NCBI GenBank assembly: GCA_025360745.1
Contig: JANYBP010000043.1
Span: 10,455 to 74,454 of the forward strand
Reading direction: 5' to 3'
DNA: 64,000 nucleotides
DNA from: a bacterium
Lineage (GTDB): Bacteria > Verrucomicrobiota > Kiritimatiellia > CAIKKV01 > CAIYGI01
The notes below the pieces were generated by a model. It did not search any database and was not told the origin of the DNA. It was given only the letters and a program-made list of their open reading frames with translations. Both the position numbers and the translations under genes were made by a program. How positions within the stretch are numbered: the stretch's first letter is position 1; every line of letters begins with the position of its first letter. Shown here one piece after another: positions 16,504-50,765 of this stretch.

Positions 16504-17843
16504 GACCGGCGGGCTCCGGCCGCGGACGGCGCGGGAAGGTGCAGGTTGGAAGGTGGAGGTTGGAGGGTGGAAGGTGGAGGGTGGAGGGTGGAAGGTGGAG
16601 GGTGGAGGGTGGAAGACGAATCGGTTCCAGCAGTACTCGGGGACGGCGCGGCGATGCGCACGGCATAGGGGAGCAGAACGGCGCGACGATGCACGGAGAG
16701 GGAACTGCTCACCGCCAGGCGGCGGGCGGCGCCCGCGCCTTCACGCCAGGTCGCGCCCACCGACAATTCGCATGCGCCCGGCGTCGCGCTGTCCGGAACG
16801 ACCAGCGGCACTTCCATAACCTGCGCCCACATGTCCGCCCCCTCCGAAAGCACATTATCCGCCTGCGCCAGCATGCGGCCACGCTGGCGCAGGTGGATGA
16901 ATCCGACCAGAGCGGAGGACTCCGCCTCCGCGGGCACGGACCAGTAACACCGCAGCAGCAGGCGTTCGCCTGGCGCGACGGGACCCTCCGGCGCGCCGAT
17001 TCCCAGCAGCGTGACGCCGCGATCGAAGGCCGCCAGCGGCGCTTCGGCGCGGGCGATCAATTCCGGCACGGTCACAAAGGTGTAACCGCGCGCCTTAAGC
17101 GCCGCCAGCACCTGTTCCAGAACCTTGACCACCACGGCGCGGTTGAATCCCAACTGGGTATCGTGTCCATCGTGCAGCAAAAGAATGGCGCCCGAACTCA
17201 CCCGCCGCAGCATGTAATCCGCCATGACTTCCGGCGGATCGTTATGCCAATCGTAGGCATGCACCGAGACGCCGACATTGATCTGGTTTTCGGCCCGGCA
17301 CAGTCCCGCCAAACCACGATAGCGGCGGTCGGCGGCGCTGACGCCAACGGCCTTGGCGCCCGCCTCCTCATCCGGCCCGAAAATGCCGAAGGGATCGCGA
17401 AATAACACCGGACGCACACCCGTCACGGCGGCGATGGCGTCGGCGCCGTGACGGATCTGGTCGCGCCGTTCCGCATACGAAATCCGGTCGAAGCGCGGAT
17501 GGTCGTAGGAGTGGTTGCCGATCGCATGGCCGGCCTGCAACATACGCCGCACCGTGTCCGGACTGCGTTCGACATTGGTGCCGACGAGGAAAAAAGTCGC
17601 CCGCACCGACTCGCGGTCGAGAACGTCGAGCACCTGCGAGGTGTAGGGTTCATTCGGACCATCATCGAAGGTAAGCGCCACCACGCGCCCCGCAACCGGC
17701 ACATAACTTACAAGATCGCCCGCTTGAGGCCTGAAGGGCAGCCGTTCCGGTCCGCGGCATCCCGCCAGCGCAAAGACAGCGATAAAAACGAGCACGGAGG
17801 CACAAAGGGCTTTAATAGCGCATCGCACAACTTTCATGCGCAC
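16500..17843 (-). CDS. Polysaccharide deacetylase (NodB/CE4) lipoprotein with Pro-rich repeat tail
   Basis: Lipobox LAGC. NodB motifs TFDDGP...HSYDHP. C-terminal (STLHPPP)n tail encoded by a GGTGGA-type tandem repeat. Confidence 0.85.
   Translation of the reverse strand: MRMKVVRCAIKALCASVLVFIAVFALAGCRGPERLPFRPQAGDLVSYVPVAGRVVALTFDDGPNEPYTSQVLDVLDRESVRATFFLVGTNVERSPDTVRRMLQAGHAIGNHSYDHPRFDRISYAERRDQIRHGADAIAAVTGVRPVLFRDPFGIFGPDEEAGAKAVGVSAADRRYRGLAGLCRAENQINVGVSVHAYDWHNDPPEVMADYMLRRVSSGAILLLHDGHDTQLGFNRAVVVKVLEQVLAALKARGYTFVTVPELIARAEAPLAAFDRGVTLLGIGAPEGPVAPGERLLLRCYWSVPAEAESSALVGFIHLRQRGRMLAQADNVLSEGADMWAQVMEVPLVVPDSATPGACELSVGATWREGAGAARRLAVSSSLSVHRRAVLLPYAVRIAAPSPSTAGTDSSSTLHPPPSTLHPPPSTLQPPPSNLHLPAPSAAGARRS
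16541..16620. repeat. Tandem GGTGGA/GGGTGGA-type repeat (coding, Pro-rich tail); a dispersed second copy of the motif lies at 47150-47200
   Basis: ttggaaggtggaggttggagggtggaaggtggagggtggagggtggaaggtggagggtggagggtggaag seen directly in the sequence. Confidence 0.8.
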
Positions 17844-31788: not shown

Positions 31789-31797
31789 TTTAATAAA

Positions 31798-31826
31798 CGA
31801 TGAACGATGAATGATGAACGATGAAG
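31798..31826. repeat. Left arm of inverted repeat, (CGATGAA)x4, bracketing the four-helix-bundle gene
   Basis: cgatgaacgatgaatgatgaacgatgaag. Its reverse complement lies at 32215-32242. Confidence 0.75.
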
Positions 31827-31845: not shown

Positions 31846-32220
31846 TCATTGCTGTTTCCTTTTTTTTGCGGTAATTACGGAAGCGGTGAAGATTGCTATG
31901 AGTTCTTCCGTTTCGTCCAACAGCCCTTGCATCTCATCTGACAGAACGGTTTTACTGCCGACCAGCAGTTCCAACCAATATACAGTCTCATCCAACTCCT
32001 GCAGACCACCCTCCATCTTGCTTATGAACTCAGCCGTGGAACGCGCTCGGGACGCTTCGCGATGGTGCGCACCAACCGACGTTCCGCTTCTCAGCACTTG
32101 CTTTCCAAGAACCTGGGCCACGGACGTTTTCGCTAAAGAACAATACATTCGGATAATCCGCAGTGAATATTCCTTCAGCCTCTCTTTCAAATCCCAAGGT
32201 TTCTGTTTTTCCGCATTCAT
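31846..32220 (-). CDS. Four-helix-bundle protein (23S rRNA intervening-sequence protein family)
   Basis: EYSLRIIRMYCSLAK...QVLRSGTSVGAHHREASRARSTAEFISKMEGGLQELDETVYWLELL is typical of the family. Confidence 0.8.
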   Translation of the reverse strand: MNAEKQKPWDLKERLKEYSLRIIRMYCSLAKTSVAQVLGKQVLRSGTSVGAHHREASRARSTAEFISKMEGGLQELDETVYWLELLVGSKTVLSDEMQGLLDETEELIAIFTASVITAKKRKQQ

Positions 32221-32242
32221 CGTTCATCATTCATCGCTCATC
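32215..32242. repeat. Right arm of inverted repeat, (TTCATCG)n, overlapping the start codon of the four-helix-bundle gene
   Basis: cattcatcgttcatcattcatcgctcatc. About 21 contiguous complementary bases with the left arm. Confidence 0.75.
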
Positions 32243-32329
32243 ACGTTGGCGGAATAATGCGCGATGCGGGGAAAAAACGCAAACGAATTGCCTGAGCGTA
32301 CGGATATAATGCCGCGATGAAATGGCCGT

Positions 32330-42021: not shown

Positions 42022-43191
42022 ATGATTCAATCGAAACCCATCCGCCGCCGCCCCGCCGCCGCCAGTCAAGGCCCATCTTCGTTCGCCACAATCATGCTCT
42101 GGGCCGCCCTCGGCATCGTCGTGGCCTTCGCCATACTAATGCTGGCCGGGCGCCCCGCCCACCCGCCCGCGCATGTCCTGCCGCCGGGCGGCGTGACAAC
42201 CAACAGCGCGGCGCCAGCCGTTACCAACGCGCCGGTGCAACCGAGCCTGGGTAATGCGGGGTTCCCGACGCCGCAAACCAATCTGCTGGCCGCCAATCCG
42301 GCGGGCATCTTCATGCCCACGGGCACGGGCAACCCGAACTCCGGCCTCTTCGGCTCCGTCCGCACGCAATCCTCGGGCGCCGCGCAATTTCATGAAGGCG
42401 TCGACATCGCCCCCGTCCAAAAGGGGCGCGGCGGGCTGGCGCTCGACGATGTAACCGTCATCGCCGACGGCACGCTGGCCTATCTCAACCGCGCCACCGG
42501 CAACTCGAACTACGGCCGCTATGCGGTCGTTCTACACAGCGACCCGCTGGGCGAGGTTTATACCCTGTACGCCCACCTGGCCGATCTGACGCCCGGCCTG
42601 GCGCCCGGCCAGGCCCTGCGCCGCGGCGCGGTGTTAGGCCGCATGGGCCACAGTTCATCGGGCGCCATCCCGCTCGAACGAAGTCACCTGCATTTCGAGA
42701 TCGGCCTGCTGTTGAACCGCCGCTTCGACGCCTGGTTCCATGCCCAGCGCCTGACTCCAGACCACGGACTCTATAATGGCTGGAATCTGGCCGGCGTGGA
42801 TCCGCTGGCCTTCTATCGGGCGCGCGACGAGGAGACCGAACTTTCATTCGCGCGTTTTATGGATCGCGTGCCCGCCGCCTTCGAGGTGATTTTACGCGCC
42901 CGCGCGCTGCCCGGCTTTTTTCAGCGCTACCCCGCGCTCTGGCGGGGCGCCAGGGAAACCGGCCGGGCCATCGTGGTGCGGGCCAGCGAGAACGGCGTGC
43001 CGCTCGGCGGCCGCGCGGCCACCCCCGCGGAAGCCGGACGCCTCGGTCGCGCCGCCGCGCAAGTGCTGAGCGTCAACGCCGCCGCACTCGGCCGCAACGG
43101 CGCGCATCTCGTGGCCGGAGGACGCGGCGGCTGGACGCTGGGCAAGGCCGGCGAACAGTGGCGCCAGATCCTGCTCTACCCGCAACCTTGA
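42022..43191 (+). CDS. M23 family metallopeptidase (membrane-anchored)
   Basis: HEGVDIA ... HLHFEI M23 zinc motifs. N-terminal signal anchor. Alternative start at 41962. Confidence 0.8.
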   Translation: MIQSKPIRRRPAAASQGPSSFATIMLWAALGIVVAFAILMLAGRPAHPPAHVLPPGGVTTNSAAPAVTNAPVQPSLGNAGFPTPQTNLLAANPAGIFMPTGTGNPNSGLFGSVRTQSSGAAQFHEGVDIAPVQKGRGGLALDDVTVIADGTLAYLNRATGNSNYGRYAVVLHSDPLGEVYTLYAHLADLTPGLAPGQALRRGAVLGRMGHSSSGAIPLERSHLHFEIGLLLNRRFDAWFHAQRLTPDHGLYNGWNLAGVDPLAFYRARDEETELSFARFMDRVPAAFEVILRARALPGFFQRYPALWRGARETGRAIVVRASENGVPLGGRAATPAEAGRLGRAAAQVLSVNAAALGRNGAHLVAGGRGGWTLGKAGEQWRQILLYPQP

Positions 43192-43243
43192 AAACCAGAC
43201 GTTTCGTAGCCTGGAGGGACGACCTCCGTGTCATCCGTATCGG

Positions 43244-43645
43244 CTACTCCACCCAGGGACTCTGCCTGCTCTCCGGCGTGTAACAATGCAGTTCGATCTT
43301 GTTTCCGTCGGGATCGGCCAACCATGCCTGCCAACTCCGGTCCTTGCCCAGTTTCGGGTCGCTCACTTCCACCCCCTGGCCGCGCAGCGCCGCCACCGTC
43401 GCGGGCAGATCGTCCACCTCCAGGCAAATATGCTTAAAGGACGCTTGCGGAACCGCCGGTTGCACGACCCCCTGGAATATCTCGATGAATGAGCGCCGCC
43501 CGATTTTAAGGTAAGCGCCGAAACGCTGCCCATCCTCCTTCACGAAATCGAAAGCCGGCTTGCATCCCAGCTTGCCGCAATAAAACTCCACACTGCGGTC
43601 CAAATCAGCCGCGTTGAAACAAACATGCGCCAATCCTGTAATCAT
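43244..43645 (-). CDS. VOC family protein (glyoxalase/bleomycin-resistance fold)
   Basis: HVCFNAADLDRSVEFY ... HICLEVDD ... IELHCY paired beta-alpha-beta-beta-beta modules. Confidence 0.8.
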   Translation of the reverse strand: MITGLAHVCFNAADLDRSVEFYCGKLGCKPAFDFVKEDGQRFGAYLKIGRRSFIEIFQGVVQPAVPQASFKHICLEVDDLPATVAALRGQGVEVSDPKLGKDRSWQAWLADPDGNKIELHCYTPESRQSPWVE

Positions 43646-43661
43646 GGGGCGTTCTCCAAAA

Positions 43662-43735
43662 GGGTGCAGGGTTCAGGGTTCAGGGTTCAGTGTGCAGGGT
43701 TCAGTGTGCAGGGTTCGGGGTTCAGGGTTCGGGAA
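43662..43735. repeat. Heptanucleotide microsatellite, (GGGTTCA)n about 9-10 units with GTGTGCA variants
   Basis: cagggttcagggttcagggttcagtgtgcagggttcagtgtgcagggttcggggttcagggttcggg, immediately upstream of the VOC gene start. Confidence 0.85.
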
Positions 43736-43783
43736 ATCTTACAGGATGTTTGGAAGGCATGCTAGAGACGAATAGCGCGGAAC

Positions 43784-43917
43784 GTAATGGGTCAGTTACG
43801 CGGTGGGACCGCCTGAAGGCGGTACACCAAACGCGGGAATAATAAGAAGTAATGCCGTTTGGTGTACCGGCTTTAGCCGGTCTTTAGTCCACCTCCCCTA
43901 TGTCACTGACCCATTAC
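43784..43917. mobile_element. MITE-like miniature inverted-repeat element (134 bp) with 13-bp TIRs and 8-bp flanking direct duplication CGCGGAAC
   Basis: Left: cgcggaac|gtaatgggtcagt... Right: ...actgacccattac|cgcggaac. Internal nested hairpins (ggtacaccaaacg...cgtttggtgtacc; ccggctttagccgg). Confidence 0.6.
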
Positions 43918-43975
43918 CGCGGAACCTGGAAACCCTATTGGCGCAGGATGCCGGCGGGTGTATTCTGAGCACGCC

Positions 43976-44818
43976 ATGCGGCCACCAACTTTTACACGCC
44001 ATGTTCTCGTCGTCGCCGGTGTTCACCTGGGGATGCTGGCGCTGGTGATTCTGATTTCCGTGATCCCTGGCTGCGTCTCGCTGCCGCCGCCTAACAGCCC
44101 GGTGGAATTGATCGTCGAGATTCCCGAACATGAAATGGGACCAGATACGCCGCCGGACCAAAAGACCGATCAGAAGGCCGCGCCCGATCGGATCAAAGAG
44201 GTCAAACCGGAACCGATACCTCTAAACGACAAACCAAAGCAAGATGCTCCCAAGGACGAGGAGGCGATTCCGGAGATCAAGGACAAGCCGAAAGATACGG
44301 TCAAGTCCGATAAGGAGCCGAAGAAGACCAAGACGATCGAAATCAGCCACAAGATTGTCCGTCGCACGCTGAACCTGCCCGAAGCGACCAGCAAACGTAA
44401 AACGACGCTCACCCCGGATGAAATCCGCCAGCTGCTTATCCACGGCGCCACACCCGGAAAACGCGCCACCTTCTCCGACGCCGACATGCGCCGTCTGGCA
44501 AACTCCGACCTGCGTTTCGGACGCGGGGTCGAGATGTCGCGCGACTTGCTCAACTTTGACCAGATCAAACAGATTTTGTTAGGAGCTTGGCAGCAACCTG
44601 GATCGGTGGACATCAATGGATTGATGACAACGGTTCAAATTTCGCTGCGCGCCGACGGCAGGCTGGTCAGTAGTAGCATCGTCAAGGCTTCCGGCAATCC
44701 CCTGATGGATCAATCGGTCATGCAGGCAGTTCGTTCCGTGGTGCGCATTCCCGGCGTGCCCGCGGAATTTCTATCCGCACACCCGAATATCGAAATTGTC
44801 TTCGAATCGCGCAAATAA
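43976..44818 (+). CDS. TolA/TonB-family energy-transducer protein (probably TolA, given the adjacent tolB-pal)
   Basis: N-terminal TM anchor. Long Pro/Lys/Glu/Asp-rich spacer. C-terminal approx 90 aa TonB_C/TolA-like domain. Alternative start at 43958. Confidence 0.65.
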   Translation: MRPPTFTRHVLVVAGVHLGMLALVILISVIPGCVSLPPPNSPVELIVEIPEHEMGPDTPPDQKTDQKAAPDRIKEVKPEPIPLNDKPKQDAPKDEEAIPEIKDKPKDTVKSDKEPKKTKTIEISHKIVRRTLNLPEATSKRKTTLTPDEIRQLLIHGATPGKRATFSDADMRRLANSDLRFGRGVEMSRDLLNFDQIKQILLGAWQQPGSVDINGLMTTVQISLRADGRLVSSSIVKASGNPLMDQSVMQAVRSVVRIPGVPAEFLSAHPNIEIVFESRK

Positions 44819-46631: not shown

Positions 46632-46759
46632 CGCTCTGCGCCTCGCCTGAGGCGCACGGTCGGGGCGGAGTCCAAACGGACTTCGCCCTGCTTGTTTTAA
46701 GCTCTCGCCTGCCGTAGCATGACGGCATGAACGGTATGCCAATACCATTCCATCTGGCG

Positions 46760-47254
46760 ATGTTCTTCGGGTCCGACGGCCCCATGGAATGGATGATCGT
46801 TGCCCTGGCCGTGCTGATGCTCTTCGGCAGCCAGCGCCTGCCGGACATGATGCGCACCCTGGGTCGCCTGAGCGCCAAGCTTTACCGCGCCCGCGACGAG
46901 TTTCGCAAAGAATTTCAGAAAGCCATCGAACTGCCGGATGAATCGGAGGTCGGAGATCGGAGGCCAGAGGTCGGAGATCGGACATCGGAAGTCGGAAGTC
47001 AGCGGGCGGAGGTCGGAGAGCATCCCGATATGACATCCTGTCTACCTCAATCCAATTCTAAACTCCAACTTCCGGCATCTTCCATCCCGACGGCTGACGT
47101 TCAACATCAATCCTTCGAACTTTCGAATACCACCGCCGACCCATCACATTCCACCCTCCACCTTCCACCCTCCACCCTTTACCCTCCACCCGGCCCCGCT
47201 GACCTCAAACCTACGGCCACCGGACCAGGCCATACCTCGGAGTTCGAGGTATGA
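46760..47254 (+). CDS. tatA: Sec-independent translocase TatA/TatB-family protein with extended repeat-containing C-terminal tail
   Basis: MEWMIVALAVLMLFGSQRLPDMMRTLGRLSAKLYRARDEF is a TatA/B TM plus amphipathic helix signature. The tail has EVGDR-type repeats (46936-47010) and a STLHLPPSTLYPPP segment (47150-47200). Stop overlaps tatC start. Confidence 0.75.
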   Translation: MFFGSDGPMEWMIVALAVLMLFGSQRLPDMMRTLGRLSAKLYRARDEFRKEFQKAIELPDESEVGDRRPEVGDRTSEVGSQRAEVGEHPDMTSCLPQSNSKLQLPASSIPTADVQHQSFELSNTTADPSHSTLHLPPSTLYPPPGPADLKPTATGPGHTSEFEV

Positions 47255-50594: not shown

Positions 50595-50765
50595 CAGAAG
50601 CCAGAATTCAGAATTCAGAATGAATTCCCTGTTTTCTGGAGGGTCGGGCTTGCAACTCTGCGAAGCAGCGCTTCGCTGCGTAGCACGAGCCTTCTGACTC
50701 CTGAATTCTGCCTTCTGGATTCTGCCTTCTGGATTCTGGCTTCTGGATTCTGGCTTCTGGAACTG
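50595..50765. promoter_or_regulatory. Highly structured intra-operon spacer: long imperfect inverted repeat built from (CTTCTGGATTCTGG)n tandem units around a perfect GCGAAGC-AGC-GCTTCGC hairpin
   Basis: ccagaattcagaattcagaa ... gcgaagcagcgcttcgc ... ctgccttctggattctgccttctggattctggcttctggattctggcttctgg read directly. Confidence 0.55.

Follow-up and report, generated by a model that had tools for sequence, protein, structure and literature searches.

A degenerate heptanucleotide array in the probable 5' leader of a VOC-family gene belongs to a lineage-typical class of period-7 repeats in an uncultured freshwater bacterium

The DNA analysed (the window) is a 64,000-nt stretch of contig JANYBP010000043.1, positions 10,455 to 74,454, from GenBank assembly GCA_025360745.1 (GTDB lineage Bacteria; Verrucomicrobiota; Kiritimatiellia; CAIKKV01; CAIYGI01). 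The element in question is a tract of tandem 7-nt repeats directly upstream of a VOC/glyoxalase-family gene; feature coordinates are collected in Table 1. The VOC gene and a TonB-like gene are divergent and 312 bp apart. Read in the VOC direction, the intergenic region consists of a 146-nt hairpin (43921-43776), a 42-nt spacer (43775-43734), the 72-nt array and 16 nt containing a Shine-Dalgarno (SD) sequence, followed by the ATG. An initial annotation, made from the sequence letters, had described about 9-10 tandem 7-mers with two GTGTGCA variants upstream of the ATG of a minus-strand VOC gene starting at 43645. Both the tract and the gene were confirmed, the tract as 10 units plus GG and the gene by a PF00903 match and by full-length homologue alignments. 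Since the VOC homologues are 132-137 aa long and align across 97-100% of the query, the ATG at 43645 was taken as the true start, which places the tract 17-88 nt upstream of the start codon.

On the + strand the units run in the order GGGTGCA (43662-68), GGGTTCA three times (43669-89), GTGTGCA (43690-96), GGGTTCA (43697-703), GTGTGCA (43704-10), GGGTTCG (43711-17), GGGTTCA (43718-24), GGGTTCG (43725-31) and a final GG (43732-33). Tandem Repeats Finder (TRF) reported a period of 7, 10.0 copies, 82% matches and a score of 98. The canonical unit accounts for five of the ten, with never more than three perfect units in a row. The 14-mer GGGTTCAGGGTTCA, with at most two mismatches allowed, occurs eight times, every time inside the tract, against 0.29 occurrences expected (0 of 100 shuffles reached eight). 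The double-substituted unit GTGTGCA is present twice, both times within a duplicated 14-mer, GGGTTCAGTGTGCA, from which it follows that duplication went on after the point mutation. The + strand (GGGTTCA)n corresponds to (TGAACCC)n on the VOC-sense strand, with variants TGCACAC, TGCACCC and CGAACCC, and on this strand C makes up 47% of the array and G 14%. The 72 bp contain no TA dinucleotide. The array has no inverted partner: no (TGAACCC)n was present on the + strand within the whole window, and no inverted repeat spans the whole array.

A tract in this position would be expected to contain promoter elements or to lie in a 5' untranslated region (UTR), and it had been proposed that changes in unit number alter the spacing of the -35 and -10 elements. 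Known promoter-spacer switches based on simple sequence repeats (SSRs), such as the poly-G/C tracts of Neisseria porA and opc and the TA repeats of Haemophilus influenzae hif, lie between the -35 and -10 elements and span at most ~20 bp. The VOC tract is likewise an SSR upstream of a gene, but at 72 bp it is about four times the length of a promoter spacer, and it lies downstream of the putative -10 element and is unable to contain one, since the lack of any TA dinucleotide means that no -10 hexamer of the form TAnnnT occurs inside it. It also adjoins the SD sequence, and a conserved block lies wholly upstream of it. A -35/-10 spacing switch was thus excluded on geometry, and the evidence favours the 5' UTR over the promoter elements as the setting of the tract.

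The conserved block was recognized by comparison with L083, an ENA metagenome contig encoding a VOC protein 75% identical to that of the window and the nearest VOC homologue with retrievable DNA. The window block, TCTCTAGC-12 nt-CATCCTGTAAGAT, recurs in L083 as TCT[C/A]TAGC-12 nt-CATCCTGTAAGAT. Before its SD sequence and ATG, L083 carries only ~3 degenerate units (CGAACAC TGGACAC CGAAAAC), compared with the 10 units of the window. With the block conserved upstream and the SD sequence downstream, the array is read as leader and not as promoter spacer. The block would be a promoter or an operator, TAAGAT (43736-43741) being a plausible candidate for the -10 box of the VOC gene; transcription would then start at the distal edge of the array, and the array would be an expansion within the VOC 5' leader. 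Among the VOC homologues examined, the upstream block was common only to L083, those at 68% identity (L084-L087) and 66% identity (L141) having unrelated gene contexts and no arrays. A sigma-70 promoter and terminator scan of 43100-44100 gave nothing in the intergenic region, and the conserved block was likewise not called.

Transcribed as leader, the array would be essentially unstructured. The minimum free energy (MFE) of its sense-strand RNA was -1.5 kcal/mol, compared with -22.1 ± 6.6 kcal/mol for 72-mers drawn at random from the window, and not one of the 400 drawn folded as weakly. The fold of the leader plus start region gave z = +0.74, and extending it to 165 nt of coding sequence gave z = +2.4, with 200 of 200 shuffles folding at least as well. 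Two sister arrays that are likewise just upstream of start codons (A and D) had an MFE of 0.

These properties bear on a comparison with the (ATCTTTC)n arrays of H. influenzae hmw1A and hmw2A (PMC8262952, PMC12721329), in which slippage in the leader or promoter region makes expression follow tract length in a graded way. The hmw1A repeat is the best-studied case of a transcribed heptamer SSR within a 5' UTR. The geometry is similar, in that the VOC tract is a heptamer array of ~10 units with a pyrimidine-rich sense strand in a probable 5' UTR, the leader location here being deduced from sequence, and unit numbers within the repeat class do vary between related species. The hmw repeats, however, are perfect, hypervariable within populations and attached to a surface adhesin of a host-adapted pathogen, and none of this holds for the VOC tract, which is impure and precedes a gene for a cytoplasmic enzyme in a free-living lake bacterium. 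It thus lacks the hallmarks of a contingency locus, including the long perfect tract of a phase-variation switch, and similar arrays adjoin housekeeping genes in the window (carB, tatB/tatC, the glycosyltransferase gene and the gene for an ABC-transporter binding protein). The hmw repeat also pairs, as the left arm of a long hairpin, with a right arm rich in G, and the hairpin is cleaved by RNase III (PMC12721329). The VOC leader has no such G-rich hairpin partner and is less structured than shuffled sequence.

Length variation was sought in independent assemblies. The 10-unit tract was identical in independent Logan contigs covering four SRA runs, which also led us to reject an assembly artefact. 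Logan contigs encoding the exact VOC, TatC and glycosyltransferase proteins were 100% identical to the window and common to up to eight SRA samples; the identity covered arrays B, C and D and the assembled part of A, and L140 was identical at 16534-16613. Being drawn from consensus sequences of a clonal population, this identity argues only weakly against gross instability of the arrays. An exact VOC-flank search for strain variants in JGI metagenomes gave 0 matches. Added to the invariance of the tract over four SRA runs and of the sister arrays in contigs of eight samples, the one or two indel events that separate orthologous sister arrays at ~10% divergence (described below) make graded phase variation of the hmw type an unlikely explanation. 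We found no evidence of phase variation at the VOC tract; if the tract affects expression, it probably does so in a quantitative and slow-changing manner and not as a reversible on/off switch.

The G-rich strand of the array, which is the VOC template strand, raises a different possibility, that it folds into G-quadruplexes (G4) and impedes or modulates RNA polymerase where the VOC transcript begins, as part of the functional class of the Xanthomonas and Nostoc GGGNATC repeats. The tract holds two canonical G4 motifs (the first with four G3 tracts and 4-nt loops), and these are the only G3N1-7 x4 motifs on the + strand of the 64-kb window. The repeats described by Rehm et al. (2015, PMC4692102), GGGNATC and GGGGA(C/T)T, resemble the VOC array in having one G3 tract per unit and at least four consecutive tracts, in placing the G-rich strand antisense within 50 bp upstream of an open reading frame (ORF), in having metabolic neighbours, and in varying in length and sequence between species at conserved sites; the strand and ORF distance of the VOC tract fit the placement preferred by such repeats. 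The VOC unit, GGGTTCA, is not GGGNATC, however, and is present in 10 copies where four are preferred, and variant units, the GTGTGCA units in mid-array among them, interrupt the G-tracts. G4 formation is here predicted from the motif, and Rehm et al. were themselves unable to show a regulatory role. G4 was also rejected as the unifying feature of the arrays, as most units have no G3 tract (the AACGATG and CTTCTGG sister arrays are G4-incapable) and the window is not enriched in G4 motifs. We therefore regard a G4 regulatory element as improbable.

The VOC tract is not an isolated occurrence. About eight loci with period-7 arrays were present in the window (~1 per 8 kb), several of them just upstream of start codons. 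For arrays of at least 42 nt, TRF and a lag-autocorrelation scan returned only periods 7 and 14 among periods 4-15, the lag scan at five loci. A looser scan gave 13 segments at lag 7 in the window; no other lag between 5 and 11 nt exceeded 5 segments, and mononucleotide shuffles gave 0-1. The baseline in 1.17 Mb of unrelated loci was 33 lag-7 segments per Mb, no higher than at lags 6, 9 and 11. Many different units coexist in the one genome (GGGTTCA, GGAGGGT, GGAGGTC, CTTCTGG and AACGATG). In the window and in the IVP loci described below, purine-rich arrays (GGAGGTC, AAGGATG) look like tandem SD/GGA motifs and C-rich arrays (ACCCTCC, TCCACCC) contain the anti-SD core CCTCC, which may be a coincidence. 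An inverted-pair fold between the tatB arrays C and D was rejected, being no better than shuffles (z = -0.36).

The closest known class is that of the heptameric long SSRs (LSSRs) of Mrazek, Guo and Shah (2007) and the cyanobacterial short tandemly repeated repetitive (STRR) sequences. The features shared with these are 7-nt tandems longer than expected by chance, dispersal over many loci mostly at gene boundaries, dominance of heptamers, occurrence in high-GC hosts as well, and length variation between relatives; all three properties by which membership was judged (a longer-than-chance period-7 array, many dispersed loci and variation between genomes) were observed here. The differences are the uncultured host from the Planctomycetes-Verrucomicrobia-Chlamydiae (PVC) superphylum and the many unit sequences per genome, as against one to three dominant units in LSSR and STRR genomes. 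The literature searched yielded no report of such heptamer arrays from PVC bacteria. According to the summary of Mrazek 2007 given in PMC4679880, heptamers are the commonest LSSR unit in Burkholderia, Xanthomonas and actinobacteria, that is, in high-GC genera. Together with the ~8 loci of the window, this contradicts the view of the initial annotation that heptamer tracts are uncommon in high-GC genomes.

The restriction to period 7 regardless of unit sequence could also be explained without function, with the arrays as a neutral by-product of some polymerase or repair idiosyncrasy that favours 7-nt slippage and with no effect on VOC expression. It fits the proposal, attributed by citing papers to Mrazek 2007, that ~7 nt of DNA are contacted by the polymerase, and the degeneracy of the units is also in keeping with it. 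Against it, arrays cluster at gene boundaries and adjoin ribosome-binding sites, an extreme lack of RNA structure is unexpected from random expansion, and sister arrays have been kept at orthologous positions across species while gathering substitutions. We consider it very unlikely that the arrays are wholly neutral.

The orthologous comparison came from a TolB-anchored scan of species-representative genomes. The nearest relatives by TolB were the lake metagenome-assembled genomes (MAGs) CAIYGI01 'MJ-time_bin-3222' (L003, 94% identical) and 'ELA384' (L004, 80%), followed by Lentisphaerae, Kiritimatiellia and Verrucomicrobiota MAGs at 40-51%. On these sequence relationships the host belongs to the PVC superphylum, as an uncultured freshwater bacterium related to Kiritimatiellia and Lentisphaerae. 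Because the contigs of L003 and L004 stop short of the VOC side, TolB anchoring gave no VOC-side comparison in relatives. Four arrays were present in 6.2 kb of L003 and none in L004, and the more distant PVC loci rarely contain any, which makes the class lineage-specific.

The window and L003 share both the unit families and the array sites at tatB/tatC, the differences being a 14-nt indel, a ~99-nt duplication including an array, and many substitutions. At the tatC-upstream array, L003 carries 7 and then 4 perfect units together with the ~99-nt duplication. Orthologous sister arrays at ~10% nucleotide divergence thus differ by one or two indel events only, and the arrays change over the time that separates species, at a rate little above that of the DNA around them. 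The comparison of unit number suggested by the initial annotation gave differences between species, both for the sister arrays (window and L003) and for the VOC leader (window and L083), but none among the clonal Logan contigs.

Two further observations were made in L003. The tatB-like ORF (46727-47254 in the window, 2941-3261 in L003) reads into the (GGAGGTC)n array, giving a protein of 175 aa that overlaps the tatC start in the window and one of 106 aa in L003; with different stops reached in the two species, the arrays remodel the C-terminal tail of the protein. An insertion of ~270 bp, beginning with (GGTGGTA)n, lies between tatC and an ABC ATPase gene (L003 4440-4707), genes that abut in the window, and reads as a presence/absence polymorphism of an array-bearing segment. 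Outside this lineage, three Thiocapsa genomes have a period-7 array at apparently the same site ~7.5 kb upstream of tolB (L058 2488-2532, L076 2546-2595 and L080 2460-2522), and these may be an independent case of orthologous-site conservation in cultured species.

One group of arrays has a distinct architecture. Between pyrG and carB, in a set of genes all on the minus strand, lies a gene of the 23S_rRNA_IVP family (S23p, Avd-like), which encodes a four-helix-bundle protein and is framed by inverted AACGATG arrays that form a 26-bp stem closing a 400-nt loop (z = -3.7). A survey of 51 metagenome loci (L088-L138) encoding relatives 40-91% identical to the window IVP protein gave 78 period-7 arrays in the 14.2 kb that lie no more than 150 nt from an ORF end and 29 in the remaining 89.5 kb; in these loci other periods were essentially absent near the IVP ORFs and none was enriched. 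Upstream arrays are purine-rich (mean purine fraction 0.76) and downstream arrays pyrimidine-rich (0.29), the latter typically being reverse complements of the upstream units (e.g. GATGAAC and TTCATCG). A downstream array was present in 36 of the 45 loci with enough downstream flank. In the literature searched we found no description of a general association between IVP genes and heptamer arrays, the sole precedent being the 23S rRNA intervening sequence (IVS) found in Coxiella burnetii, where two or three GACAGAT units, strain-variable in number, come ahead of an S23p ORF and the first unit is cut by RNase III (PMC4990558).

The window also contains an inverted pair of arrays, (CAGAATT)n and (ATTCTGG/CTTCTGG)n, between the genes for an ABC permease and a binding protein, with no ORF inside. 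Its units resemble those of arrays flanking IVP genes in L097, L099 and L137, and the pair may represent the IVP cassette in empty form. Solitary arrays as neighbours of IVP genes were rejected, since an IVP hidden Markov model (HMM) found no further IVP ORF nearby; with this HMM there was no IVP ORF in the window beyond that at 31849-32223 and none in 1.2 Mb of TolB loci. The VOC array has neither an inverted partner array within ~0.5 kb nor an enclosed IVP ORF or short loop, as an IVS-like arm would.

The arrays might also serve as cis-sites for a shared heptamer-recognising RNA- or DNA-binding factor, candidates being ribosomal protein S1, a Csr-type protein, RNase III or the IVP proteins themselves. 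Besides the enrichment at IVP ORF ends, several arrays precede start codons by 8-60 nt, which resembles the TAACTGA repeats known from marine Beggiatoaceae, cyanobacteria and Bacteroidetes (MacGregor 2015, PMC4679880); those are found a few nt upstream of the starts of unrelated genes, have a unit that likewise contains TGA, and have been proposed to act post-transcriptionally or translationally through a post-transcriptional regulator. One family of Geobacter heptamer elements, proposed to be a global regulator site, has the consensus MTYCTGA (PMC2700814), and the VOC unit written as ACCCTGA matches it at six of seven positions. The TAACTGA repeats, however, have a single dominant unit in sets of 2-6 copies, whereas here there are many units and ~10 copies per array, and units that differ so strongly among the arrays of one genome speak against a single sequence-specific binder. 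The proposed binder is hypothetical, and the VOC array has no inverted partner and no IVP gene nearby; we judge this explanation to be quite unlikely.

A more speculative version ties the arrays to the IVP proteins, with the lineage's heptamer arrays acting as cis-elements in an RNA-level system not yet described and the VOC array as a regulated leader element. IVP genes in the loops of array stems would be IVS-like selfish cassettes that sit in operons and that RNase III cuts out of the transcript, and ORF-less hairpins such as 50595-50760, as well as solitary arrays such as that of the VOC leader, would be derivatives or landing or processing sites of the same machinery. We offer this as a conjecture that is unlikely to prove correct.

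The explanation that we prefer, with a probability of roughly 60%, is that the VOC tract is a lineage-typical degenerate heptamer array, of the LSSR/STRR kind, that has been expanded by slippage within the 5' leader and is transcribed, any effect of it on VOC expression being probably quantitative and slow-changing. It would have arisen by slipped-strand duplication, in 7- and 14-nt steps, of a short proto-repeat already present in the VOC leader. Lying between the promoter-like block and the SD sequence, it would be transcribed as most of a leader of ~85 nt, the start site being deduced from the conserved block. The resulting G-poor, C-rich and essentially unstructured RNA would keep the ribosome-binding site accessible in a genome of 62% GC, and the array could plausibly act as a ribosome standby region, while the two G4 motifs would be carried by the template strand of the DNA. 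Unit number would drift over species-level time without being visibly unstable.

Several observations weigh against this interpretation. The promoter assignment depends on a single homologue, L083, and received no call in the sigma-70 consensus scan. The arrays at 46943-47018 and L003:4458-4509 are G-rich on the sense strand, so a C-rich sense strand is not universal in the lineage. G4 motifs in the window as a whole numbered 8, against 10.2 ± 3 in shuffles, and as several sister arrays cannot form G4 at all, G4 cannot explain the class. Finally, the Logan assemblies showed 0 mismatches over 3.8 kb, which indicates a clonal population represented by consensus sequences only, in which minority length variants are possible.

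Table 1. Coordinates of the VOC locus and of related arrays in the 64,000-nt window (position 1 is the first nucleotide of the window)
Feature	Position	Strand	Evidence
Sister array (GGAGGGT/GGAAGGT)n; sense (ACCCTCC)n ends 30 nt upstream of glycosyltransferase ATG 16503	16534-16613	-	TRF, lag scan
Inverted arrays (AACGATG and complement) framing the IVP gene	31796-31825 and 32214-32243	inverted	TRF
23S_rRNA_IVP four-helix-bundle gene	31846-32220	-	PF05635, E = 1.5e-14
VOC/glyoxalase-family gene, 133 aa	43244-43645	-	PF00903, E = 1.9e-15
16-nt segment from array to ATG, with SD GGAGAA (43652-43657; GGAG 43654-43657)	43646-43661	-	Sequence; GGAG aligned in L083
Heptanucleotide array, 10 units + GG	43662-43733	- (VOC-sense)	Sequence reading, TRF; identical in L001/L002
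Canonical G-quadruplex motif 1	43662-43685	+ (VOC template strand)	Regex scan
Canonical G-quadruplex motif 2	43711-43733	+ (VOC template strand)	Regex scan
Promoter-like/operator-like block	43736-43768	-	Conserved with 75%-identical VOC homologue L083
Near-perfect hairpin, 146 nt, separate from the array	43776-43921		MFE -76 kcal/mol, z = -6.0; inverted repeats I1 + I3
TonB-like gene, divergent; likely start ATG 43976	43958-44818	+	Pfam TonB_2; conserved in L003
Sister array (GGAGGTC/GGAGATC/GGAAGTC)n, beginning inside the 3' end of the tatB-like ORF	46943-47018	+	TRF; L003 ortholog 14 nt longer
Sister array (TCCACCC)n, 59 nt upstream of tatC ATG 47251	47150-47191	+	TRF
Inverted array pair, (CAGAATT)n 50595-50624 and (ATTCTGG/CTTCTGG)n 50691-50760	50595-50760	+	Long stem, fold z = -4.1

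The 146-nt hairpin, which has the VOC promoter-like block on one side and the TonB-like gene on the other, is missing at the orthologous position of L003, and the L001 and L002 contigs end within it. No further copies were found in the window or the fetched loci, except at the same locus in L001/L002. Rfam gave no matches over the whole window at gathering thresholds, and at E <= 1 on 43600-44000 its sole match was a spurious microRNA match to this hairpin; a scan for tRNA and tmRNA genes in the window found none. The hairpin could be an insertion resembling a miniature inverted-repeat transposable element (MITE) or a structured RNA.

The VOC tract should not be catalogued as a phase-variation switch. 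Taken alone, it is an unremarkable example of the bacterial heptamer repeats, a class that is known but little understood. The lineage with its period-7 arrays adds a new phylum-level host to the question of why bacteria favour 7 nt as repeat unit and what such arrays do. The framing of IVP genes by inverted heptamer arrays provides a concrete, testable handle on the role of the 7-nt repeats.

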